The position numbers and the translations under genes were made by a program. Under the pieces are notes generated by a model. The model did no database searches, was not told the DNA's origin, and saw only the letters and a program-made list of their open reading frames with translations. A stretch of 63,605 bases of DNA, counting the filler, from Collodictyon triciliatum (Eukaryota): assembly GCA_043381765.1 (NCBI GenBank). It is 6 parts of 6 records of this genome, joined end to end, with 100 filler letters (N's around TTAATTAATTAA, not from the genome) between each part and the next. Parts side by side here need not be neighbours in the genome. Positions count along the whole stretch, not along the records: positions 20,853 to 36,922 come from JBHJMP010001585.1; 5 more parts are not named here. One strand, given 5' to 3'. Of this stretch, positions 5,458 through 37,022 are shown piece by piece; the first letter of the stretch is position 1, and each line of letters opens with the position of its first letter.

Positions 5458-8400
5458 TCAGCTCTCTCCTGCTCCGCCATTCTGGACGACCTCTGCAACA
5501 GCATCCCTTGCCTGCGTCTCCAAAGCAACATCTGCATCCTTGCCACTCACAAGCTGCTCCTCACTTTCGCGCGGCGAGTCAGCCAACCTGCCAAGCCGAT
5601 TCTCTGCAGCCTTGTGGCCCAACGCTGCTGCTCGACGGTAGTAGATGCCAGCCAGGTCGCAGTCCCTCTGGACGCCGTGGCCCAGCTCATGACAGAGCCC
5701 AAGCATGTAGAGACAGCCCGGATGGTCTTCCTTCGCCTGCAGAAACCAATCGACGGCCTTCGCATGGTCCTGCGCAACCACGCGCCCTTCGTAGTGGAAG
5801 CACCCGACAAGATACTGCGCCTCTGCATCGCCTTGCTTGGCCACGTGCAGATAGCAGTTGTAAGCCACGCGCATGTCCTGCGTGAGTCCGTGGCCGTGTT
5901 CATAGCAGCGTCCGATCTGAACGCGCGCCCCGATGTGGCCCAGGTTGGCTGCCTGGCCAAACGCTGCCGCCGCCTTCTTGTAGTCGCGCGCCACGCCTTC
6001 GCCGCGGAGAAAGCAGAGCCCGAGTCGGTAATGCGCCTCTGGAACACCCACGGCTGCGGCCCGACGCAGCAAAGCAAACGCCTTGGAAACATCCTTTGTC
6101 AGCAAGGCTGCATCTGCATCAGACTCGCCAGACGCACCCGCCTTGCTCTCTGGCGCGTCTTTCAAGGGCGGCCTCATCAGGCGAACCGCCAGCGTGGTCA
6201 GGCCGAGCGGGTGGTCTTGCGCAGCAGCCTGTCCGTACCAGTAGATTGCACGGCGAGAATTCTGGGGGACGCCTTTGCCGCATTCATAGCAGTCACCCAA
6301 GGAACACTGCGACCCGGCATGGCCCAAGGCAGCGGCTTTCTGGAGCCACTCCACGCCGGCCACGGTGTCCAGGTCGCTGTTCTCTTCGCCGAGATGGTAA
6401 AGCCCCAGGTGATGCATGGAGTCTGTGTGGCCCTGTGCAGCCGCCTGCTCATACAGCCAGCGCGCCCCAAGCAAATCCTGCTCTGCGCCTTCTCCAAGCT
6501 GCTTGCAAAGGCCCAATCCGTGCTGCCCTCCACTGTGTCCTAAGTCTGCCGCCTTCTTGTACCATGAAGCAGCTGCGGCCCGGTCTCGCTCCACACCAAG
6601 GCCTTGAAAGTAGCAATCGCCCAGGAGAAAAAACGCGTGGCAGTGGCCTTTGTCAGCCGCTATGTGAAACCAGCTGACAGCTTCGCGCGCTGCATCCTGG
6701 TCGATAAGGGCAAAGTCTTTGCACAGCCCGATTTCTCGTCTCCTTTTCAGACGCTGCTCCGCAAGATGGCGTTTCTCTCGAAAGGTTTGGTGGCTGCCCT
6801 GCTCTCTTGTCTGTTCAATCGCAGGCTCTTTGCCGGGTGGGTTGTGCTCTGGACTCTTTTGGTTGAAGTAGCGCTCGTACTCCTCATCATCAAAGAAGTA
6901 GTAGTCGTATCTCGCACCACCTTCTCCTTCGCTGTCATTGTCGTTGTCGTTGTCGTTGTCGCTCTCACAGTCACTCTCGTGAAACGGATTTCCGGCCTCT
7001 GCATCTATCCCATCACGCAGGGGTTTTCTCGTTCGTGACTTTTCCTCAATGATACAGCGCGGACCTGGTCCGTCTGTGTATTGGGAAGCAAAAGCACATG
7101 AAAAGATATCTGAAAATCCTGAGGCGCTCGTTGGTGGGTTTCCACAGTTCATCAAAAACTCTCCCACTGCAACCTGTGCATCTGCTTGGCCAAAGTGGGC
7201 GGCGATTGTATACCACTCAAAAGCTTCTTCTTCGCTGGCCGGTATTCCGCGGCCGTGGCGATAGCACTCAGCCAGGTGAAACATGGCATCCGCGTGTCCG
7301 TAGCTTGCTGCCTTTACAAAGTACTGGACCGCCATCTCTAGATTCTTTTGGACACCAAGTCCATTTTCATACAGCAAGCCCAGTGTATAGACTGCTTCAT
7401 CAACCACTTCGATTTCTTCATCATTGACGCCCTCCTCCTCCTCCTCCTCTTCTTCCTCTTCTTCTTTTAAAGCGTCTTGCTCTCCCTTTTTACTCCCAAC
7501 GTCACCATTTGTTTCTCCTCTTTGAATACCCATACCACCATCGGCTGTTTCTTGCCCTTGCGAATCAACACTAATAGTTTCAGTGATGCTAGTTCTCTCA
7601 GTCCACCTGCTTGAGTTGCTTTCCTTTTCAGCTATTTTGAGCAGCACTGAGTGATTGCTATTCTCCACAGAATTTATGAGCTTCCCACAGCAAGGACAAA
7701 CATGGGGATTGAGAGAAACGGCTGATTTAGGTTCTGGGGAATGTAAACATTTGACTTCATTTACCTCTTCTTGTACATGGTTCCCCATTTGAGAGACTAT
7801 GTGCTTTGTTTGTCCCACTGTAAAGGAGATAAGGAGGGACTTTTGGCCCTGTGGATTCGTTCCCTTTTTCTGAATGGGCATATCCAGAGTGCTGGACAAT
7901 TCGCTTAGTCCGGAAGGTGTCTTTGTTTCCTCGCGATTCAGCTCCTGGTGATTCAATTTATGATTGGCTTTGAATAAATCGTGGAATATGTTTTTCGTTC
8001 TCCCCCCTGTTTCGACATTTGTTTTGAATAGCGCCTTTTGGATAAATTCATAGGTTTGGCCATAGCTCTTTTCGACACCCAATCCATGGAAATGCATGAG
8101 AGCGAGTACACAGCAAGCGTGTCGGTTACATGATTCAGCCGCTTCTGACAAGAGTTGGAGACCCTGGGCTCTTAAAGAAGGTTCTTCATGTACTACTTTA
8201 TGTCTTTCGTGGAGGATACAATTCTTTGTGTCGATGTAGAAAGCAGACAAGGTCTCGTCCAAATCAACTGTGATATCCGCGGTTGTGTCTGAGCGCGATT
8301 CAAGATGGTACCCTCGGAGATAGCAGAGGGCTAAGGCATACTTTGCATGGACATGACCTTGAGCTTGTGCAAGATTATACCAGGCCATAGCTTCTCGAAA

Positions 8401-11400
8401 AGATTGCATAACACCTACACCATAAAAGAAGCAATCTCCTATGTCTGTCTGTGCGCACTGTAGACCATTTCGGGCAGCCTTAAGTATCCACGCAGATGCC
8501 GTTTTCAAATCCTTTTGCCCGCCAAAACCAACCCCATCAGCATACATCCATCCGAGAACATATTGAGCCCAAGGAAAGTTATTTTTTGCAGAAAGTTTAA
8601 TCCAATATAGCGCGTCAGCCATGTTCACTTGACAATGCAGGCCCTTCAAGTTGCATATGCCAACGATGAATTGAGCCTGCGCACAGTTCATATTTGCCGA
8701 GCGCAGAATCCACCTATAGCCCGATGTCACTGTAAGTGTTATTCTCTTAGAGCAAGATAGCATTCCCAATGCAATAGGTGCATATTTGTCGTATTGCAAC
8801 GACGCTCTAGTCAGGTAATAAACAGCCAGCTCCAATTCAAAATCATGCTGGGCATGATTTGCTATGTTAATACCCAATTGCCTTTGTGATTTTGCGTGCC
8901 CCCTTCTTGCAGCCCTAGCAAGCCAAGTCCTGGCATTATGAATTCGTTTCTTTCTGATCGCTTCATAGTCCAACTCCTCTGGTGACGTTCTTTCAAAATC
9001 GGAGTCGCTCTTATCCTCATTTTTACCAGCTAATCCTCTATCTCCTGTTGCATGCAAAACTGCATTTTGCTGGGGTGCATTTGCACTTTGTTTTTGCTTA
9101 TCAGTACTGAACTCTGGTCGAGATTTGAAATCATTTGATGAATTTTTATTGTCCTCGCTTTTTAAATCCTTTGGATCCTTATCTGGGATATTGCCCCAGT
9201 TCTTCAGGTAGTAAAGTCCACAATTATACATAGCCTCGTAACCCCCTTGGTGCGCAGATATTTTCCACCACTCTAGGGCTTTGCTTGGGTCAGCTTTGAA
9301 TCCATACCCCCGAAGGAAGCAGCAACCAACATTATTGATAGCATGGGTATGTCCTCCATTCGATGCTTTCATGAGCCACTCAAGCCCTTTGTAATAGTCC
9401 TTTTTAGACTCAGTCAGATTTCCATGGCAAAAACTCATGCCGTAGTGATACATGGCTCCAACTATGCCAGCCTCTGCTGCATCACATAGTCTCCTGATAC
9501 CCTCACTTACATTTCGGTCGGCTCCGTACCCATAGATATGGCATATACCAAGAAAGTAGCCAAAAATGTGATGAGAAAATGAGAGTCTTTGAAGACATCG
9601 AAAGGTTGAATCATCAGATCGGCTTGGGTTTTTTTCAATTTGCTCAGATATCTCGACTAGAATGTCATTTCCTCTCGGAAAAGGGATGTCTGATGGGTAC
9701 TCCAGATACAAGCAGCGAATGGCGACAAGAGAAGGAATGAACCTAGGCTTCTTGATTAAAGAGAGTATGTAGAGACATTGCGCACGAAGATAGTTCCGGT
9801 CAGCGTGTGCGACGCCGCCATTCTGTAAGTTCTTTTCGAAAGAGTGAAATAGATCTGCTTGAAAGATAAGTGATGGATTCGGATGGTGCGCTGCTCTTAC
9901 GAGGTCGTTAAGTGCAGTAGTGGTGTTTCTTTCTGTTCCAACTCCGTAGAAGGAGTAAATGCACGAATATACCAAAGCCTCGTGGTTGGAGACCTCACAA
10001 AAACTTCGCACCGATTTGTATATAAAAGTCTCTGTGGACACTTCTCTGGAGTCAAGAACAATCTTCAACTTTGATGTCATATCAACATCTTCTGCAGTAT
10101 CGAGCCTGCATAGATCGGTAGGAGAGAGCTTTTTTACAAAATTGATGGGTACCTCAGACGGTGGAAGGTCAAGATGCTGATCAAATATTGAAATACAGTT
10201 AGTGACTGTGTCTTTGCCTCTATTGTTTTGGTTTGCACTCACTTGAATTAGCAGAATTTTAATTTAACAAGCGGCTACTTTATATTCAGAGACACAAATA
10301 AATAATTTCTGATTGGTGCTATCAATAGAGTGGTAGAGAAATATTACAGACATAATAATGATAAAAAAAAATCACCTCTATTCTAAAAATTGACATCTGG
10401 GACTTTATAAGAAGCTCAGCGTATGGCTGAGATAAATGTACATTTTGGATAGCAGCAAAATCAACAATATCAGCAAGAAATCCAGACTCGTCCATGCCGA
10501 TCAAGCGAGAGTCGGCAGGGTTAAGGTACGGAAACAGAGCGGATAATAGATAAATCGATTTCGTTGAGGACTTTTGTTGAGACACATCTGGTGATTCCTG
10601 TGAGAAAATACATGATTATTTTATGAAATGTCCTTCACGAAGCATTTTAATTTTATTGCAGAGTGCAAGATATACACTTTTCCCCTGCTCCTTTTTATGC
10701 TAGGTCTTTGGAGAGAGAAAGAGTTAAGGAAGGCGAGACACAGCAAGTTTGTTGAATAAGGACTCACGTGCGATTCTCCAGATTTTGTCTCTCCTTCAAA
10801 TCCTTTTGATGATTCCAATCCATCCTTGGTTAGGGATGAGATACTGGAAGATTCCAGTGCACTGTGCTCAAAATCCAAAGGTGATTGGGTAGACTCTGAG
10901 CCCCCTGTCATCACAACCAGTGAGCAGACATAAAAAAAAAATAATTTGTAAACAAGAGGAAAATTAAACAAACTGAAACACCCAAATAAGATTATGCACA
11001 AGGATATGCGATTTAAATCTGAGAATTGGATGCGAGGTAATGATGAAATTAGGTATGCAGGTAAGAGGTAATGAGGAAAAATAAAACAAGAGCACATGGA
11101 TGGATAATGCAGAAAAGGAACGACTTTGGAGAAAGAAATGCTTACTGTCTGAAAAATAGTTGTAAAAGATGTCGTTGTCCATGACCGTCCACAAGGGGTG
11201 CACTCTGATCCGATTAAGAATGGTAACCAGATGGTAGAAATTGGGGCGGGCATATGGATCCTGATGCCACGCGATGGAGAATATATTGCGAATAACCTCA
11301 GGCAGGTTCGCAGGCAGCGGCAGACGTATCTTTGCTGCAACACAAGTGACCACATTAGTCGGGCCAATGCCCTGGAACGGCACACGCCCGCACAGCATCT

Positions 11401-12163
11401 CCCACAGAACCACAGCAAACGAGTAGACATCGCCCAGCTCCCTGCTTCCCACGCTGCGGGTCAAGTCCTCCAAAGCCAGCTCCGGTGCATAGAAGGCTAT
11501 TCCATGCAGCGAGATGCCTGTGCTTGTGCTTGTGCTGGTGCTTTGACTCTGTAGCCAGTGCCTCATGCGTGATGAAAGTCCTCCCCACAAGCCAACCTTG
11601 ACCTTGCCGGCCTTGGGAGGCGGCCCAATAGTGCCTTCGTCCACAACGTAGATGCAGCTGCTGCTCAGGTCTCCGTGCTCCATGCGCACCGACGGACTGT
11701 GAAGATAGGCCATGGCATCTGCAATCTGCAGCGCCCACCGAGTCCAGCGTTCCAGACTCAGCCCGCCCCACGGGCCAGTGCATCTGCTGCCCAGAAAGTC
11801 TCGCAGGCTCGGCCCGGTGGCCTCTGTGACGACATAGGCGCGCCCGTCTCGAGCCCACAGTCCAAAGAAGCGCGTGACGTGCGGGTGCGTGGCAAAGCGC
11901 AGCGCCTGCAAATCGCGTTGCAGTTCTCGCATACTGGCTGCTGTGCTTTCACCGCCGTCTTTGTCCAGATCCACGGGGATTTGGTGCAGATGCACGGCCG
12001 TCTCTGTGTTTGCAGGGTCTGTGCTCTCGAAAGGCCGCCTGTCAGATGCCCGGGTTGCAGAAGCCCCGTGGAGAAGGCCATGGTAGATTGGGCCCCATGA
12101 GTACTCGCCCGTGAAGGCGCCGATGCTGATGCTGGCTGGAGCGAGATCCCAGGTGCTGTCCAT
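5458..12163 (-). CDS. TKL-like (pseudo)kinase domain plus long Sel1-like repeat region, probably one gene
   Basis: Exon 12163-11146 has the kinase fold (HPHVTRFFG, HGDL, YAPE, DVYSFAVVLWEM, W..DPYARP). Linker exons 10904-10768 and 10597-10376 splice in phase. The 4.8 kb exon (~10241-5458) has many Sel1 repeats (AQYxLGxCYxxGxGVxxDxxxAxxWYxKAA) and no ATG near its 5' end. The last junction needs a micro-exon or unusual site, so the fusion is inferred. Confidence 0.75.
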
Positions 12164-12199
12164 TCTGCCCCTGTATTTTGTGTTTGAGTGTGGCTTTCG

Positions 12200-12643
12200 T
12201 TTTTTTTCTTTTTTCTTTTCTTTTTTCTTTTTCTTTTTTCTTTTTCTTTTTTCTTTTTCTTTTTTCTTCTTCTTTTTTTGTCTTCTTTTTTCTTCTTCTT
12301 TTTTTGTCTTCTTTTTTTGTCTTCTTTTTTTGTCTTCTTTTTTGTCTTCTTTTTTTTTGGCCTTTTTTAATTCTTTTTTCTTTTTTTCTTCTTTTTTTCT
12401 TTTTTTCTTTTTTCTTTTTTTGTCTTCTTTTTCTATTTTCTATTTTCTTTTTTTTGTCTTCTTTTTCTATTTTCTTATTTTCTTTTTTCTTTTTTTCTTT
12501 TTATTTGCCTTTTTTCTTTTTTCTTTTTTTGTCTTCTTTTTCTGTTTTCTGTTTTCTTTTTTTCTTTTTATTTGCCTTTTTTCTTTTTTCTTTTTTTCTA
12601 TTTTCTTTTTTTTTCTTTTTTCTTTTTATTTGCCTTTTTTTTA
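12200..12643 (+). repeat. ~440 nt degenerate T/C-rich tract (A/G-rich on kinase sense strand)
   Basis: Directly visible; source of spurious poly-Phe ORFs. Confidence 0.9.
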
Positions 12644-20752: not shown

Positions 20753-20852
20753 NNNNNNNNNNNNNNNNNNNNNNNNNNNNNNNNNNNNNNNNNNNNTTAA
20801 TTAATTAANNNNNNNNNNNNNNNNNNNNNNNNNNNNNNNNNNNNNNNNNNNN
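20753..20852. other. Artificial contig linker N-TTAATTAATTAA-N
   Basis: Six-frame-stop 12-mer at 20797-20808 between two fixed-length N runs; recurs five times. Confidence 0.95.
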
Positions 20853-28677: not shown

Positions 28678-29877
28678 TTCACACAGCTGCCCATCCATAC
28701 TCCTGGCTTTGACTCAGAACGGGCGTGTTTTTGTTTTTTGAAGCGCAAGATATACTCCACCCACCAATCCTCTCAGCCTCAGGTGTCTGCGGTATCTACT
28801 TTACGACATACACACATATATATTTCCTCTACATTTTTTACATTCCGTTCTTCTCTCACAATCGGAGGAATAGACATAAACATGCATGGAGGCACAGAGT
28901 CAAAATGGAGATGCGTGGTTGCGCTAAGGTCTCCACATCCGAAGCAACTGGCCTTCTCTCTCCGGCTCGGGACTGCACACAGAGAGGCCAATGCGTTCAC
29001 TTTCCTGGCACAAAGCGCATAACTTTCACGAATGAATCCCCAATCAAGATATGATTTAGTCCAAGACGAGAGACACTCCCGTCCCGACACAGAAATAGGA
29101 AGAAGCAGAAGGCAAAAGGCGGAAGGAGAAGCGATAATCAAAAGCCCAGTAAAGAAGACACAGCAAAGCAAGAGGGAAGAGAGGACGGCAGGGCGCAGTC
29201 AGAGGCGGCAGGGGAAGAGAAGGGCGGGCGAGTCGGACGAGTCAAAGAGACGCACGTCGGCGGCCGAGTTTGGCGAGGGGGATGTGCGCAGAGCACACAG
29301 GGCGGCCACGGCAGCATCGGCCCCGCGCGGGTGTGGCTGTGGCTGTGGTTGTGGCTGTGTTTGTGGCGGAGACAGGCTGGACACAAGCGGGTGGCGGGGC
29401 GGGGCGGCTGTGGCTGTCTCGGCGTCCAGGATGTGGCCGTGGTCTGTGGCTGTGGAGCAGTCAGACAGCGTGTCGCAGTGGATGGCGTGGCTGTGGCTGT
29501 GGCTGTGGCAGCAGCTGTGTGTGGGCGGCAGCGTCGGCAGCGGCAGCGGGAGGGGCGGCGGGTAGTTGAGCATGAGTGGATGCGCGTAGAGCGGCAGAGA
29601 GAGGGCGGCGATGGAGGGAAGCAGCGGCTGTGGCAGCGGCTGTGGTTGTGGTTGTGGCTGTGGCTGTGGCAGGCGGCGTGGCGGGAAGGGGCGCGGCGGG
29701 AAGTGCGGGGCCGGGCGCGAGGAACTCTTGCGGGGCGGCGGGCGGCGCAGGGGCAGCAGGGCGGCTGTGGCGGCAGCCGGGTCTGTGGCAGCCTTTGTGG
29801 CAGCGGCAACGAGTGTGGCAGCCAGTGGGCCTTCGCGGTCCTCGTGCTTCTTGCCCCAGGCGCGCGTGTAGTTCCCG
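28678..29877 (-). CDS. Hypothetical low-complexity protein, 3' part, ending ..TPVLSQSQEYGWAAV*; 5' end lost in gap
   Basis: GC-rich coding-like exon with a donor near 29256 and a terminal exon of about 28794-28678. Middle exon frame unresolved. Confidence 0.4.
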
Positions 29878-30749
29878 NNNNNNNNNNNNNNNNNNNNNNN
29901 NNNNNNNNNNNNNNNNNNNNNNNNNNNNNNNNNNNNNNNNNNNNNNNNNNNNNNNNNNNNNNNNNNNNNNNNNNNNNNNNNNNNNNNNNNNNNNNNNNNN
30001 NNNNNNNNNNNNNNNNNNNNNNNNNNNNNNNNNNNNNNNNNNNNNNNNNNNNNNNNNNNNNNNNNNNNNNNNNNNNNNNNNNNNNNNNNNNNNNNNNNNN
30101 NNNNNNNNNNNNNNNNNNNNNNNNNNNNNNNNNNNNNNNNNNNNNNNNNNNNNNNNNNNNNNNNNNNNNNNNNNNNNNNNNNNNNNNNNNNNNNNNNNNN
30201 NNNNNNNNNNNNNNNNNNNNNNNNNNNNNNNNNNNNNNNNNNNNNNNNNNNNNNNNNNNNNNNNNNNNNNNNNNNNNNNNNNNNNNNNNNNNNNNNNNNN
30301 NNNNNNNNNNNNNNNNNNNNNNNNNNNNNNNNNNNNNNNNNNNNNNNNNNNNNNNNNNNNNNNNNNNNNNNNNNNNNNNNNNNNNNNNNNNNNNNNNNNN
30401 NNNNNNNNNNNNNNNNNNNNNNNNNNNNNNNNNATGGGTATTATTATATTTAACCATAAAACGGTTGCTATGTATTAGACATTATAATTGAAACACTTCT
30501 TCAATACTATTGTATTAATATATATCCTTGGTTTATTATGAATCGAATCAAAATAATATCACTATCGTTTTATTTACGTGTGGCTTATTATTTTTGCAAT
30601 CTATTTAATTTATATTTTTAAAATTAGAAATTAACAATACAAAACGATGCGTGTAATGTAAAATTTGTCAATAATGAATTATTTGAAATAAAAAATCAAC
30701 GAAATAAATTATTTTTTAATTTTAAAATCACATCAATCTTATTTATAGA

Positions 30750-33700
30750 ATGGGATTGAAATCAAAGTCATCTGCATTCGCGTCGCTGTTTGGTGTGTTA
30801 TTTATAATACATTTTTTCTTTAATTGACCTAAAATTACAAAAAAAAAAACTAAATTATTCGACAAAAGCCTTTATTGATAGCTCTCATGCTAACAATTTT
30901 TTGATTTAAAATAAAATTATTATTCTAGGAATTTTAATATGCATTAAAATATGTCAAGTTGAAGCAGTGGATGATTTCTTGATTCGCACGTTGACTGGTC
31001 ATTCCAGTTATGTTTACAGTGTTGCTGTTACTCCTGATAACTCAAAAATTATTTCTGGAAGCTATGGAGAAATCAAGATCTGGAATCTATCTGATGGAAC
31101 ATTGATTCGCACATTGAATGGTCATACTAGTTTTGTTACAAGTATTGCTGTTACTCCTGATGGTTCAAAAATTGTTTCTGGAAGTCTGGATTGGACAATC
31201 ATAATTTGGAATCTCTCTGATGGAGCTTTAATTCGCACATTGAGTGGTCATACTAGTCATGTTTGGGATGTTGCTGTTACTTTTAATGTCTCAAAAATCA
31301 TTTCAGGAAGTAGTGATAAATCAATCAAAATCTGGAACCTTTCTGATGGAACATTGATTCGCAATTTGACTGGTCATACTAATATTGTTAGTACTGTTGC
31401 TGTTACTCCTGATAGTTCAAAAATTGTGTCTGGAAGTTACGATAATACAATCAAAATTTGGAATATTTCTGATGGAGCTTTGATTCGCACATTGACTGGC
31501 CATACTAGTATTGTTGAAAGTGTTGCTGTTACTCCTGATAGTTCAAAAATCGTTTCTGGAAGTAGTGATAATTCAATCAAAATCTGGAACTTTTCTGATG
31601 AAACCTTGATTCGCACATTGGCTGGTCATACTAATACTGTTAGCACTGTTGCTGTTACTCCTGACAGTTCAAAAATCATTTCAGGAAGTAGTGATAATTC
31701 AATCAAAATCTGGAACCTTTCTGATGGAACCTTGATTCGCACATTGACTGCTCATACTGATGATGTAACCAGTGTTGCTGTTACTCCTGATGGCTCAAAA
31801 TTCGTTTCTGGAAGCTGGGATAGAACAATCAAAACATGGGGACTTTGTGTTTCTGGTTTTTTTTATGATTCAATTTCAAAGTCTTGTCAAATATGCCCAT
31901 CTGGAACCTATGGTATTGGAGGAACATCATCATGTTCTTTATGCCCAGCTGGGACATACAATCCATCTAATGGATCTACAAGTCTTTCTGATTGCATTTC
32001 ATGTGAAGCAGGTGCGTACACTAAATTAACTGGTCAAAGTTACTGCATTAAATGTGCAGTAGGTACTTACAACCCTAAAACAGATCAAACTGTTTGCATT
32101 TCATGCCCACTTGGCACTTACAATAATAACACTGGTTCTACAAGCTCTGCTTCCTGCATTTTTTGCGAGGAAGGAAAGTATAGCAACAAGACAGGTCAGG
32201 CATCATGCCTTAATTGCGAACCAGGAACATACACTAATATACGTGGACAGACATCGTGTTTTGATTGTCCATTAGGATTCTATAATGAAGAGCCAGGAAA
32301 AAAGTTTTGCACAGCTTGCAGCCCAGGAACATATTCGAATTCTACTAAAGGGACATCTTGTGAAAAATGTCCAGCCGGTTCATACAACCCAGATGTCGCA
32401 TCAACCAGTGTAACTAACTGTCTGTCATGCCCGAAAGGAAGATATTCATCAAAATCAGGTGAGTCTACATGTGAAATTTGTCAATCTGGTTCGTACAATC
32501 AATATCAAGGTCAGACTGGGTGCACTAATTGCACTGACGGAACATATAATCCAAGATTTGGCTCCAGTTCGAATACATCATGTATTCAATGCCCAAAAGG
32601 AACTTATGGAAATGAACAAAGAGATGAATGTTTATCGTGCTCAGCTGGTACATTTAATGAAAAAACTAGTTCATTCAATCAATCATCGTGTATTTCATGT
32701 CCAAATGGAAGCTACAGCTCAGAAAGAAGCTCATCATGCAGTTTGTGCCCATCAGGATATTATCAAAAAGAAGGAATTATTAAAAACTCAAGCTCATGCT
32801 ACACATGTCCAAAAGGCACATTCAACTCAAAATCCGGTTCGTATGGAGACAAGTCATGTATTGAATGTCCACAAGGCACTTGGAATGACAGAGATGGTCA
32901 AGCGTCATGCACATCATGTCCAGCTGGTACATTCAATAACAAAACTGGATCATTTGAATTATCATCATGCATCCCATGTCAAAATGGAAGCTACAGCTCA
33001 GAAGGTAGCTCATCATGCAGCTTATGTTTATCAGGATTCTATCAAAAAGAATATGCCACGAAAAACTCAAGCTCATGCCTCACATGTCCAAGAGGCACAT
33101 TCAACTCAAAATCCGGTTCGTATGGAGACAAGTCATGTATTGAATGTCCACAAGGTACTTGGAACGAGAGAGATGGTCAAGCGTCATGCACATCATGTCC
33201 AGCTGGTACATTAAACAACAAAACTGGGGCATTTGATGAATCATTATGCATTTCATGTCCAAATGGTAGCTACAGCTCAATTGGAAGCTCATCATGCAGC
33301 TTTTGCTCATCAGGGTTCTATCAAAAAGAAGACGTCCCGAAAAATTCAAGCTCATGCTACACCTGCCCAAAAGGCACATTCAACTCAAACTCCGGCTCAT
33401 ATGGAGAATCATCATGCATTGAATGTCCACAAGGTACTTGGAATGATAGAGACGGACAAACATCATGCGCATCATGTCCAGTTGGTACATTCAACAACAA
33501 AACTGGTTCAATTGAATTATCATCATGCATTGAATGTCCAAACGGAAGCTACAGCCCAGAAAGAAGCGCATCATGCAGCTTGTGCTCATCAGGATTCTAT
33601 CAAAAAGAAGAAATGATGAAAAATTCAAGCTCATGCTATGCTTGTTCAAGAGGCACCTTCAACTCAAACTTCGGCTCATATGGAGATAAATCATGCACTG

Positions 33701-36700
33701 AATGTCCGCAAGGTACTTGGAATGACAGAGATGGTCAAGTGTCATGCACATCGTGTCCAGCTGGTACATTCAACAATGAAACGGGCTCATTCAATGCATA
33801 TTCGTGTAATTCGTGTCCAAACGGAAGCTACAGTCCAGAAAGAAGCTCATCATGCAGGTTATGTTCACCAGGATTCTATCAAAAAGAGGGAATCATTAAA
33901 AACTCAAGCTCGTGCTACACCTGCCCAAAAGGCACATTCAACTCAAACTCCGGCTCATATGGAGAATCGTCATGCACTGAATGTCCGCAAGGCACTTGGA
34001 ATGATAGAGATGGTCAAGCATCATGCACATCATGTCCAGCAGGAACATTCAACAATCAAACGGGCTCATTTAATCAATCATCGTGTATTACATGTCACGA
34101 TGGAAGCTACAGCTCAGAAAGGAGCTCGTCATGCAGCTTATGCTTATCAGGATTCTATCAAAAAGAGAGAATCATAAAAAACTCAAGCTCATGCTACACC
34201 TGCCCAAAAGGCACATTCAACTCAAACTCCGGCTCATCTGGAGAATCATCATGCATCGAGTGTCCACAGGGCACTTGGAATGATAGAGAAGGTCAAGCAT
34301 CATGCACATCATGTCCTGCTGGTACATTCAACAATAAAACTGGCTCATTTGGTGATTCATGCATTTCATGTCCAAACGGAAGCTACAGCTCAGAAAGAAG
34401 CGCATCATGCAGCTTATGCTCACCAGGATTCTATCAAATAGAGTATGTCCTGAAAAACTCAAGCTCATGCTATGCTTGTCTAAAAGGTACATTCAATTCC
34501 AACTCAGGCTCATATGGCAGCTCGTCATGTGTTGAATGTCCACAAGGTACATGGAATGATAGAGACGGACAAACATCATGCATATCATGCCCAGCTGGTA
34601 CATACAATAACGAATTAGGCTCATTTGATCAATCATCATGCCTTTCATGTCCAGACGGAAGCTACAGCTCAGAAAGAAGCGCATCATGCAGCTTATGTCC
34701 ATCAGGATTCTATCAAAAAGGGGGAATCACAAAAAATTCAAGCTCATGTTACTCTTGTCCAAAAGGCACATTCAACTCAAAATCTGGCTCATATGGAAAC
34801 AAATCATCGTGCATTGAATGTCCACAAGGCACATGGAATGATAGAAATGGCCAAGCATCATGCACATCATGTCCAGCAGGAACATTCAATGATAAAACTG
34901 GCTCATTCAATCAATCATCATGCATTTCATGTCCAAATGGAAGTTACAGTCCGGAGAGAAGCTCTTCTTGCAATTCATGTCCCACACGCTCAACTACAAC
35001 TAAAGAGGGCTCTGAATCAATTCATAATTGCACGTGCTTGCATTCGTACATATCATTCGATGGTGCTTGCACATGCCCTCCAGGACAGTTTGAGGATGGA
35101 AATAAATGCGTTTCTTGCAGACTTGGTTCATACAAATCAACAAACGGCACAAATTTCTGCCTTTCATGCGGTGATAAGTTTACGACAATATATAATGGCT
35201 CGATGAACTCAACCGATTGTGTTTGTAGTACTGGATTTGAACTCAGGAACTCCACTTGCGAATGCAAACCTGGGTGGTATGAAAAGCAGAAGAACTGCTA
35301 CGAATGTCCACCAAGCACTTACAATGAAAACTTTGGACAAAGCTTTTGCGAAAAATGCCCAATGAATTCATTCACAAATATGACTGCATCAATATCAATA
35401 TCAGAATGTAAATGTATTCCATCTACATATCTCGAGGCAAAGACCAAGCGGTGCAAAGATTGTCCAACAGGCTTTATCTGTGATGGAAACACTCAACCGA
35501 GTGTCGCACCAGGATATTGGCAAGCGCCTTCATCAAATGGAGAATACATCGCTTACAAATGTCTGAATGAAGATGCTTGCAACGGAGGGAATAATACATG
35601 TGCTGAAGGATATAACGGAGCTTTATGCAGTGTTTGTGAAAAGGGGTTTGGTAAAACCGGTGTTTATTGCACTAAATGCCCCAACCAAGGAACGAGTGGA
35701 TTTTTAGTTTTTCTCAGCATTGCGGTACCTCTATTGTTTGTTCTGTTCATGATAGAGCAATCAAGACAACCAAAGACAGCTAAAATACAGATTCTAAAAA
35801 CACTTGCATCTCATTTTCAAGTTTTGTCATATCTGGCGAACTTCGATGTCGACTGGAGCTCCACCATATTCTCCATAATGAAAATACCAGCTCTCTTTTC
35901 ATTTTCTCTTTCTATAGACACGTATCCAATTGAATGTAGATTTGAAATGACAATTTACGATAAGGTTCTGTATTCGATGATGACTCCTCTGATGTTAATA
36001 GGACTGGTTCTTTCTATAGTTACAGCCAAAATTGTGTGGAAACTAAGAACTAATCAAATTAATAGCAGAGATGTTACTTTCTTCAAAATCAACCAAGAGT
36101 TTATTTTTTCCATGCTGGTTATGCTATTTTTTGTTCATCCCACGATTATGTCGTCAATATCAAACATATTCCGTTGCGAGAGGTTTGGTGATGAAAGTTA
36201 CTTAAAGGCTGACATGTCCATAATGTGTGATGATACAACATACCTCATTTGGAAAAATATTGCTCTTGTTTATGTGATTCTTTACTGCTTTGGTGGCCCG
36301 TTTATTCTCGCTGCATACATGCTCTACAAAAGGTCATCACTGATTGATCCAGCATCAAATGCTTACAACTTACTCCGATTTTTGGTTGATGGATATACGG
36401 AAGAATGCTTTTACTGGGAAATTGTGACTATGATGCAAAAGCTGCTAGTCGTTTTGATAAGCATTTTCTTTTCTTCAGCCTTGCAAATTTACTTTGGATT
36501 GTGGTTACTTTTAATGACTATTGCATCATCTCTTTATTTCAAGCCATTTATGTCCGATGTGCTCAGGAAGTCACAGCTTTACTCAATATCGGTCCTTTAC
36601 TTCACCTTGATGACAAGCCTTCTGTTCAGATATACAGACCTTAGTATAACTGCAGAATATTTTCTTGTGACACTGGTTGTTTTGTTGAACGTAATTATTG

Positions 36701-36891
36701 CAGTTGTCTCTTTAATGAAAGCTGGGCCTGCTGTGCTAATGTCTCTCTTGGGAAAAATGGAAATGTTTGTAGAGCCAATTTATGAAGCCGTGCTAAAATC
36801 ATCTGCAATTACTTACATGAAAAACAAATGGATTATTACCAGAGAAGAACAGGAAATGAAGGATTTCAATGATGCTACAACATCTCTTTAA
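30750..36891 (+). CDS. Large surface receptor: signal peptide, 7 WD40 repeats, GCC2/GCC3 (ephrin-receptor-like) Cys-rich stalk, ~9-helix membrane domain
   Basis: Exon 30750-30792 splices in phase to 30929-36891 giving MGLKSKSSAFASLFGILICIKICQVEA|VDD. Then GH..W(N) repeats, CxxCPxGT(Y/F) repeats, a PGYW..C..G..GALCxVC juxtamembrane motif and hydrophobic helices with FYWE and KPF motifs. Confidence 0.92.
30979..31840 (+). repeat. Seven highly similar 126-bp WD40-coding repeats
   Basis: Unit starts 30979, 31102, 31228, 31354, 31480, 31606, 31732 (first unit one codon short). Confidence 0.95.
32737..34968 (+). repeat. Eight ~279-bp (93-aa) Cys-rich coding tandem repeats
   Basis: Unit starts 32737, 33016, 33295, 33574, 33853, 34132, 34408, 34687. 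Confidence 0.95.
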
Positions 36892-36922: not shown

Positions 36923-37022
36923 NNNNNNNNNNNNNNNNNNNNNNNNNNNNNNNNNNNNNNNNNNNNTTAATTAATTAANNNNNNNNNNNNNNNNNNNNNN
37001 NNNNNNNNNNNNNNNNNNNNNN
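36923..37022. other. Artificial contig linker
   Basis: TTAATTAATTAA at 36967-36978 within N runs. Confidence 0.95.

Follow-up and report, generated by a model that had tools for sequence, protein, structure and literature searches.

Canonical WD40 propellers of the GH-WD type are regarded as cytosolic or nuclear scaffolds. The gene at 30750-36891 of a 63,605-nt stretch of Collodictyon triciliatum DNA (assembly GCA_043381765.1; the whole stretch is called the window here) raises the question of whether such a propeller can stand outside the cell as the variable head of a receptor. A first-pass annotation had read the gene as an extracellular counterpart of the hypervariable WD40 sensors of fungal NLR proteins. 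The reading favored here, at a probability of about 0.6, is a rare WD40-headed surface receptor on a known protist scaffold, with a top face that was differentiated by selection and is putatively ligand-binding.

The WD40 array was analyzed by domain search, repeat search, and structure prediction. Pfam WD40 (PF00400) matched seven stretches (E 3.6e-69, 226.7 bits against a cut-off of 27), and Tandem Repeats Finder reported a 126-bp repeat in 6.8 copies at 30979-31834 with 80% matches. Unit 1 was shorter by one codon, and the N-terminal LIRTL strand closed blade 7. The single-sequence AlphaFold model of the domain had four strands per unit, with a predicted local distance difference test value (pLDDT) of 94.4 and a predicted template-modelling score (pTM) of 0.90. 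In Foldseek, it superposed on the seven-bladed 7big with TM-scores of 0.93/0.98 and a root-mean-square deviation of 0.8 Å, and on WDR5 with a TM-score of 0.92. The best solved sequence relative of the array was the highly repetitive Nostoc propeller 2ymu (phmmer, E 1.3e-228). The head is predicted to be a closed seven-bladed canonical WD40 propeller. Pairwise identity among the units averaged 0.79 for DNA (0.70-0.90) and 0.68 for protein (0.50-0.81), which is far above that of ordinary WD40 blades; to call the repeats nearly identical in DNA was too strong.

The 28 variable residues that had been listed for the array were all correct. Over the seven units, they read Y, F, H, I, I, T, and D at GH+3; Y, T, W, S, E, S, and T at GH+5; Y, L, S, Y, S, S, and W at SGS+1; and -, W, K, N, N, N, and R at SGS+3. 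When the register was mapped on the strands of the model, the d-a loop ended with unit codon 10, codon 12 was second in strand a, and codons 28 and 30 lay within the b-c turn. Codons 10 and 12 flank the invariant V11, codons 28 and 30 flank D29, and the two pairs are 18 codons apart. In canonical WD40 topology, the top face is made up of the d-a and b-c loops, whereas the bottom consists of the c-d loop.

The same arrangement is found in the HET-E/HET-D/NWD family of NLRs of the fungus Podospora anserina, in which tandem 42-codon WD40 units are likewise much more similar to each other than ordinary blades, and in which segments of units likewise bear marks of exchange. According to PMC1805685, the Podospora NWD repeats have four positively selected codons in the pairs 7/9 and 25/27, each pair flanking a conserved residue, all within the d-a loop and the b-c turn at the top of the propeller. 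The register was equated with that of Podospora by pattern and text description, not by alignment to the Podospora sequence. The variable residues occupied NWD-type positions, as the first-pass annotation had proposed. Because the literature on the Podospora repeats defines these sites, the four codons could be set in advance of the divergence analysis.

Divergence among the seven units was estimated by the Nei-Gojobori method. At the four a-priori codons, the proportion of non-synonymous differences (pN) was 0.64 and that of synonymous differences (pS) was 0.545; the other 38 unit codons had a pN of 0.146 and a pS of 0.26. Neutral evolution of four codons on seven tips was simulated under a simple Jukes-Cantor model. 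At pairwise distances of 0.35 and 0.5, a pN of 0.638 was reached in none of 4,000 replicates, on either a star or a structured tree, and at a distance of 0.97 the P values were 0.036 (star) and 0.013 (structured). As an internal control, eight super-repeats of the stalk of the same protein were used (pS 0.38, pN 0.115). A pN of at least 0.55 was found in 4 of the 42 WD40-unit codons versus 2 of the 94 stalk-repeat codons. Over the seven units, the non-synonymous divergence at the variable codons thus exceeded both the framework pS and the neutral expectation. The array, the domain matches, and the clustering of change at the four a-priori codons were far beyond chance.

Signs of exchange were also present in the array. 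Units 3 and 6 had 16 differences over the 63 sites of their first half and 2 over the 63 of their second half (Fisher 5.6e-4 with 15 pairs tested), and 18 of the 36 pairs of informative sites failed the four-gamete test. The WD40 units are mosaic, probably through exchange of sub-unit segments. These data fit homogenization or recent amplification of the units, combined with selection for differing residues on the top face.

The remainder of the protein consists of a cysteine-rich stalk and a multi-pass membrane module. Pfam Ephrin_rec_like (formerly GCC2_GCC3; PF07699) matched the stalk in 31 stretches (E 4.5e-176), and 142 cysteines were counted within residues 330-1610. The hydropathy scan marked a hydrophobic leader, a strong helix spanning residues 1605-1623, and another seven hydrophobic segments. 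The model of the membrane module, built on an alignment of relatives (pLDDT 82, pTM 0.76), had about nine membrane-length helices, and one of its loops, predicted to face outward, contained a beta-hairpin whose cysteines are invariant; C252 and C269 were invariant in alignment A1. The seven WD40 repeats, the cysteine-rich stalk of more than 1,200 aa, and the membrane module of about nine helices that had been described were thus recovered by Pfam, the hydropathy scan, and the model. Furthermore, the 27-residue leader, the WD40 array, the stalk, and the membrane module fill the protein and leave no space for NACHT, whose absence had been stated.

The stalk repeats also showed a pattern of their own. 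The eight 93-aa repeats at 32641-34870 were more conserved than the WD40 units and had a variable patch at unit codons 45-47 (QKE-xxx-KNSS).

To place the membrane module in a family, the last 489 residues were compared by phmmer with 1.84 billion representatives. Relatives numbered 8,484 at E ≤ 1e-3 and 142 at E ≤ 1e-30, the matches spanning query residues of about 2-430, and most of them bear long N-terminal extensions. The best full-length relatives were transcripts of the amoeboid protist Rigifila ramosa, with about 32% identity and E values down to 5.9e-70. DUF7630 was matched by 8 of 18 aligned relatives (E ≤ 1e-3). In the five relatives scanned with Pfam, the heads were TIG, FG-GAP, RCC1-like, PQQ/BamB-like, or BNR propellers, together with Ephrin_rec_like and DUF7630. 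Atlas look-up of the C-terminal part returned Ephrin_rec_like/TRP/DUF7630 clusters at 0.94-0.96, which serve as leads only, and a literature search found no paper naming 'DUF7630'.

The relatives therefore share a homologous membrane module, with DUF7630 and Cys-rich or TIG modules in front of it and, often, a beta-propeller as the distal head. Since propellers are frequent among these heads, an extracellular propeller head on this anchor is the rule, and the WD40 identity of the head is the unusual part. Judged from the sequences, the scaffold is a known, very large, and unstudied protist family, of which the WD40 head makes a rare variant. The architecture had been taken as more isolated than it is: the stalk plus membrane module forms a huge family in which other propellers are already present as extracellular heads.

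The rarity of the WD40 head was then measured from both ends. The heads of relatives are of the FG-GAP, RCC1-like, PQQ, or BNR type, whereas WD40 was found in none of the 151 membrane-module relatives examined, and neither the stalk nor the membrane module was found among the best 120 matches to the WD40 region. Of 387 proteins fetched, local phmmer matched the WD40 part in 227, the stalk in 18, and the membrane module in 154, and no protein combined WD40 with either of the others; the match lists held the best 120-150 proteins each, so the zero overlap does not prove that such proteins are absent. When the membrane module, the WD40 region, and the junction served as queries in word-indexed protein searches, the proteins found were either WD40-only or stalk/membrane-only. 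The Atlas had no cluster with both parts, its matches to the N-terminal 700 aa being WD40 clusters only (≤0.85), and no relative was found among viral contigs.

Metagenome contigs were scanned with the junction region, and 1 of 80 loci, L001, had all three parts. L001 is a 4,869-nt contig with a single uninterrupted open reading frame of 1,534 codons between short non-coding ends. Its leader, MKSIIVLAMLLSGILA, is clearly of the signal type. After this leader, the order is a region of about 230 aa without Pfam match, seven diverged WD40 units, Ephrin_rec_like, a weak DUF7630, the membrane module, and a C-terminal TIR_2 (32.3 bits against a cut-off of 28). L001 was collinear with the C. triciliatum protein through all seven blades and the junction, with 34% of 577 aa identical (BLASTP, E 2e-76), and the two propellers were 40.6% identical. 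The common junction between WD40 and stalk reads SGSWD[RK]TI..W, then C..G[FY][FY].

The two proteins thus agree in the signal-type leader, the seven-unit WD40 array joined directly to GCC2_GCC3, the DUF7630-like module, and the membrane module. L001 differs in the extra region before the propeller, the diverged blades, a stalk of about 250 aa versus about 1,280 aa, and the C-terminal TIR_2. Since L001 is independent and has the same junction, the architecture does not come from chimeric assembly; it is real and rare. The TIR domain is best known from immune signaling. As its sequence indicates, L001 carries what looks to be a bona fide secretory leader and ties the family to a cytosolic signaling domain. 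The region at 3500-4783 of L001 contains TIR_2 and then a further region of about 200 aa.

The C. triciliatum gene lies on a 6,489-bp contig (30434-36922) with N runs on both sides, in a window of scaffolds that are joined by N44-TTAATTAATTAA-N44 linkers and range from 24 to 68% in guanine-cytosine (GC) content. The contig ends 31 nt past the stop codon. An open frame of 1,993 uninterrupted codons begins at 30910 and closes with the TAA at 36889-36891. Exon 2 has no in-frame ATG upstream of the WD40 array, so an upstream exon is needed. A 43-nt first exon is plausible from its ATG, GT..AG boundaries, phase, and GC, which is 0.44 compared with 0.20 in the upstream region and the intron. Joined to 30929, it gives a coding sequence of 6,006 nt and 2,001 codons, and the protein begins MGLKSKSSAFASLFGILICIKICQVEA|VDD. 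Small residues at -3 and -1 suggest that the leader would be cleaved after VEA. A second in-phase exon candidate at 30538-30577 (MNRIKIISLSFYL) would likewise give a hydrophobic N-terminus. The coordinates are given in Table 1.

Table 1. Features of the WD40-headed gene, in positions of the window.
Feature	Position	Strand	Details
Candidate first exon, 43 nt	30750-30792	+	ATG + 14 codons + 1 nt, encodes MGLKSKSSAFASLF; in phase with 30929
Candidate intron, 136 nt	30793-30928	+	GT donor at 30793, AG acceptor at 30927-30928, GC 0.20
Rest of signal-like leader	30929-30966	+	G-ILICIKICQVEA; hydrophobic stretch at residues 5-23 (hydropathy scan)
Seven WD40 units	30979-31860	+	IRTL-register starts 30982, 31105, 31231, 31357, 31483, 31609, 31735
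Cys-rich stalk, about 1,284 aa	31846-35697	+	Ephrin_rec_like (GCC2_GCC3) modules
279-bp (93-aa) super-repeat, 8.4 copies	32642-34972	+	Inside the stalk; Tandem Repeats Finder, 82% matches
DUF7630-like Cys-rich module	35557-35679	+	PF24633, 26.3 bits against a cut-off of 27; directly before the first membrane helix
Multi-pass membrane module, about 9 predicted helices	35698-36747	+	Hydropathy scan and model; conserved Cys in predicted outward loops
C-terminal tail, 47 aa, and TAA stop	36748-36891	+	

The propeller is contiguous with the disulfide-rich stalk, so the membrane cannot come between the two. The chain exits the propeller after strand c of blade 7, so that the stalk should emerge at the bottom, and the variable top face would point away from the rod and the membrane. 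Six of the seven units carry an N-glycosylation sequon, W-N-[LIF]-S, where strand c ends at the bottom of the propeller (31081-31089 in unit 1, with equivalent positions in units 2-6). In L001, blades 3 and 5 have W-N-V-T and W-N-L-T at the strand-c sequon place (2 of 7 blades). The claim of an extracellular WD40 receptor stands in part. The shared side with the stalk, the signal-like leader, and the L001 homologue all argue for it, and secretion itself and a place at the cell surface, as opposed to an organelle lumen, have to be softened to probable.

These features suggest how such a protein might work. The gene of this AT-rich microbial eukaryote would encode a 2,001-residue glycoprotein with a leader, a WD40 propeller, a GCC2_GCC3 rod of about 1,280 aa, and DUF7630 followed by about nine helices, with its N-terminus outside and its C-terminus inside. 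The distal heads of the family would be interchangeable, being either beta-propellers (FG-GAP, RCC1-like, PQQ-like) or TIG domains. In the present protein, the 28 top-face residues (four per blade) may have been differentiated by selection after recent amplification or homogenization of the units, with sub-unit exchange, and the variable top face would be the ligand-binding surface. Binding would be relayed to the membrane module, and in L001 the signal would pass on to the cytosolic TIR.

Several points weigh against this receptor reading. The selection test rests on just seven units and a crude Jukes-Cantor model, and gene conversion of the framework could deflate its pS. In addition, the pS of the four codons themselves was 0.545. 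The nine-helix count rests on the hydropathy scan and one model, and the membrane module (35422-36888) has no solved counterpart, with no Foldseek match in PDB at E ≤ 0.001. Pfam found no TIR or other signaling domain in the C. triciliatum protein. When four sequencing runs were mapped on 30434-31104, depth was 0 over 30710-30939, so the intron was neither supported nor refuted. The run search had given small shares, up to 0.14 of the sampled words, and the mapped runs contained short pieces of related WD40 units rather than the gene itself. The draft is fragmented and concatenated, the contig with the gene measures 6.5 kb, and short-read assemblies misbuild repeat arrays of this type (PMC12222747), although the 10-30% divergence of the units lowers this risk here. 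The WD40 blades have no cysteine (three are present in residues 1-330, two of them in the leader), and, unlike plant CRINKLY4, the propeller lacks disulfides that would adapt it to the outside.

The CRINKLY4 receptor kinases are alike in having a seven-bladed propeller followed by a TNFR-like Cys-rich domain, and 10.1101/2020.08.10.245050 reports a functional, putative ligand-binding groove in that propeller. They differ in their non-canonical blades, each tied by a disulfide, their single membrane helix, and their cytosolic kinase. The C. triciliatum protein has a multi-pass anchor, and Pfam found no kinase domain in it.

A stronger reading, closer to the first-pass annotation, is an NLR-style hypervariable sensor, in which unit exchange within or between copies keeps making new allelic specificities for prey, pathogen, or self/non-self recognition. 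The excess at the four codons and the mosaic units would suit it, as would the TIR of L001, and in Podospora NWD genes the same four-codon pattern is under diversifying selection, as described in PMC1805685. Furthermore, all four sequencing runs contained 38-51-nt pieces in freshwater contigs that were 90-95% identical to the unit core at 31009-31063. Their flanks retained the LIRTL/GH and D.TIKIWN framework and differed right after GH. In run X4, a low-depth contig of 287 nt, which begins inside exon 2, matched 30952-31101 with 3 differences and then 30979-31066 with none. In this contig, unit 1 is thus followed by a copy resembling unit 1, in the place that unit 2 takes in the window. Such pieces hint at a pool of related units, and perhaps at variation in unit order. 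However, they are short and cannot be tied to this gene or its architecture, and repeat contigs can be misjoined.

Other results count against the hypervariable sensor. No allele or paralogue was recovered, and no second copy of the gene or array was found within the window. The blades of L001 are ordinary, diverged WD40 repeats. The stalk, which is not a recognition part, shows equally recent amplification (pS 0.38), and the gene may therefore be prone to tandem amplification in general. The fungal proteins have NACHT/NOD and N-terminal effector domains and a cytosolic propeller, whereas the present protein has no NACHT/NOD or effector domain, a single seven-bladed propeller, and a predicted extracytosolic location for it. 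No NOD family was found in the best 25 of the 44 Pfam families matched or in the C-terminal scan. PMC4986451 sets the threshold for high internal conservation at 85% amino-acid identity or more over a stretch of 100 aa or longer, and the 68% protein identity of the present units falls below this value, contrary to what the first-pass annotation had implied. Lacking a NOD domain and this level of identity, the array falls outside the fungal class of NLR repeats with high internal conservation. By analogy, it may still work like them, and its specificity might be reshuffled by repeat exchange in the population. Overall, a sensor that keeps generating new specificities is possible but rather doubtful.

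A mechanical role fits the data less well still and is improbable. The protein would then be a tether in which a rigid, mastigoneme-like rod stands on a TRP-like module, the WD40 domain is a knob for anchoring or polymerization, and force on the rod gates or positions the module. A profile search of PDB sequences gave matches limited to the Cys-rich part, in Eph receptors and in the Chlamydomonas mastigoneme protein Mst1. Mst1 (8tx1, E 4.2e-32) is the only solved relative of the stalk. Fission-yeast Pkd2, which we take to belong to PF06011, has the same gross layout as the present protein. It is described in 10.1101/2022.08.11.503631 as having a signal peptide, an outside domain, nine helices, and a cytosolic tail. 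In Chlamydomonas, Mst1 polymers form an extracellular filament attached to the TRP channel PKD2, according to PMC7265326; this too pairs a Cys-rich extracellular rod with a TRP-type membrane protein, although there the rod and the channel are separate proteins. The Pfam TRP family PF06011 was matched by 3 of the 18 aligned relatives (best E 3.9e-5), and in the Atlas clusters Ephrin_rec_like was paired with TRP in 11-15% of members. However, the present protein had no PF06011 match even at E up to 10, and the membrane-module model matched no channel fold in PDB (best TM-score 0.14; TRPM4 at E of about 0.07-0.2). A pure knob, moreover, would not need differentiation of its top face beyond the neutral expectation.

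An artefact, whether a chimeric contig, a repeat collapse, or a separate WD40 gene (for example, cytosolic or bacterial) misjoined to a stalk gene, could be suspected from the N gaps and the GC range of the window and from the best relatives of the WD40 units, which are bacterial and fungal STAND proteins and Nostoc 2ymu, but it is hardly credible, given the same junction in one uninterrupted frame of L001 from an independent data set, the 1,993-codon frame open across the junction here, the low third-position GC of all three parts (0.23, 0.32, and 0.38), and units that differ enough (10-30%) for read placement.

If the receptor reading is right, a canonical WD40 propeller would have been placed in the secretory pathway in two independent sequences, probably at a receptor-like tip. 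If the head binds ligands, the known set of extracellular recognition folds widens. It would also offer a natural test of whether the mode of evolution of fungal NLR sensors, with homogenized units and diversified top-face codons, works extracellularly, and a first functional handle on the DUF7630 multi-pass family, which has thousands of members, none of them studied. Toll-like receptors are alike in logic only, with a repeat sensor outside, a membrane anchor, and TIR inside as in L001; they differ in their leucine-rich repeat (LRR) solenoid and single-pass anchor, and TIR is lacking in the C. triciliatum protein. A wider proposal is quite unlikely and speculative. Free-living protists might possess surface receptors for immunity or allorecognition that form a class of their own, with a WD40 sensor, its top face diversified by exchange and selection, and a nine-helix module leading to cytosolic effectors such as TIR. 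Such receptors would add a third solution, independent of the other two, to LRR-TLRs and NACHT-WD40 NLRs.

Some further features were noticed elsewhere in the window. The TTAATTAATTAA linkers are located at 20797-20808, 36967-36978, 53131-53142, 59499-59510, and 61667-61678, between 44-N runs, and have stops in all six frames; a mixed origin of the scaffolds is possible. Since the window is an artificial concatenation of scaffolds, the neighboring genes give no context for the gene and were rejected as such. An Rfam scan of the window gave no match. On the reverse strand, a 1,601-codon open frame with 8 Sel1 repeats (5458-10263) adjoins a frame with a Tyr/Ser-Thr kinase domain (10964-12439). 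The block at 44203-49380 has 57-68% GC, unlike the remaining window. One of its frames, 1,055 codons long, weakly matches inner-membrane-complex protein (IMCp, E 6.8e-5), and the opposite strand bears an ankyrin-repeat frame. At 29300-29700, a GGCTGT/GGCTGTGGTTGT-type, microsatellite-like tract was observed in a GC-rich stretch; the tract ends in a 556-N gap just upstream of the contig of the WD40-headed gene.

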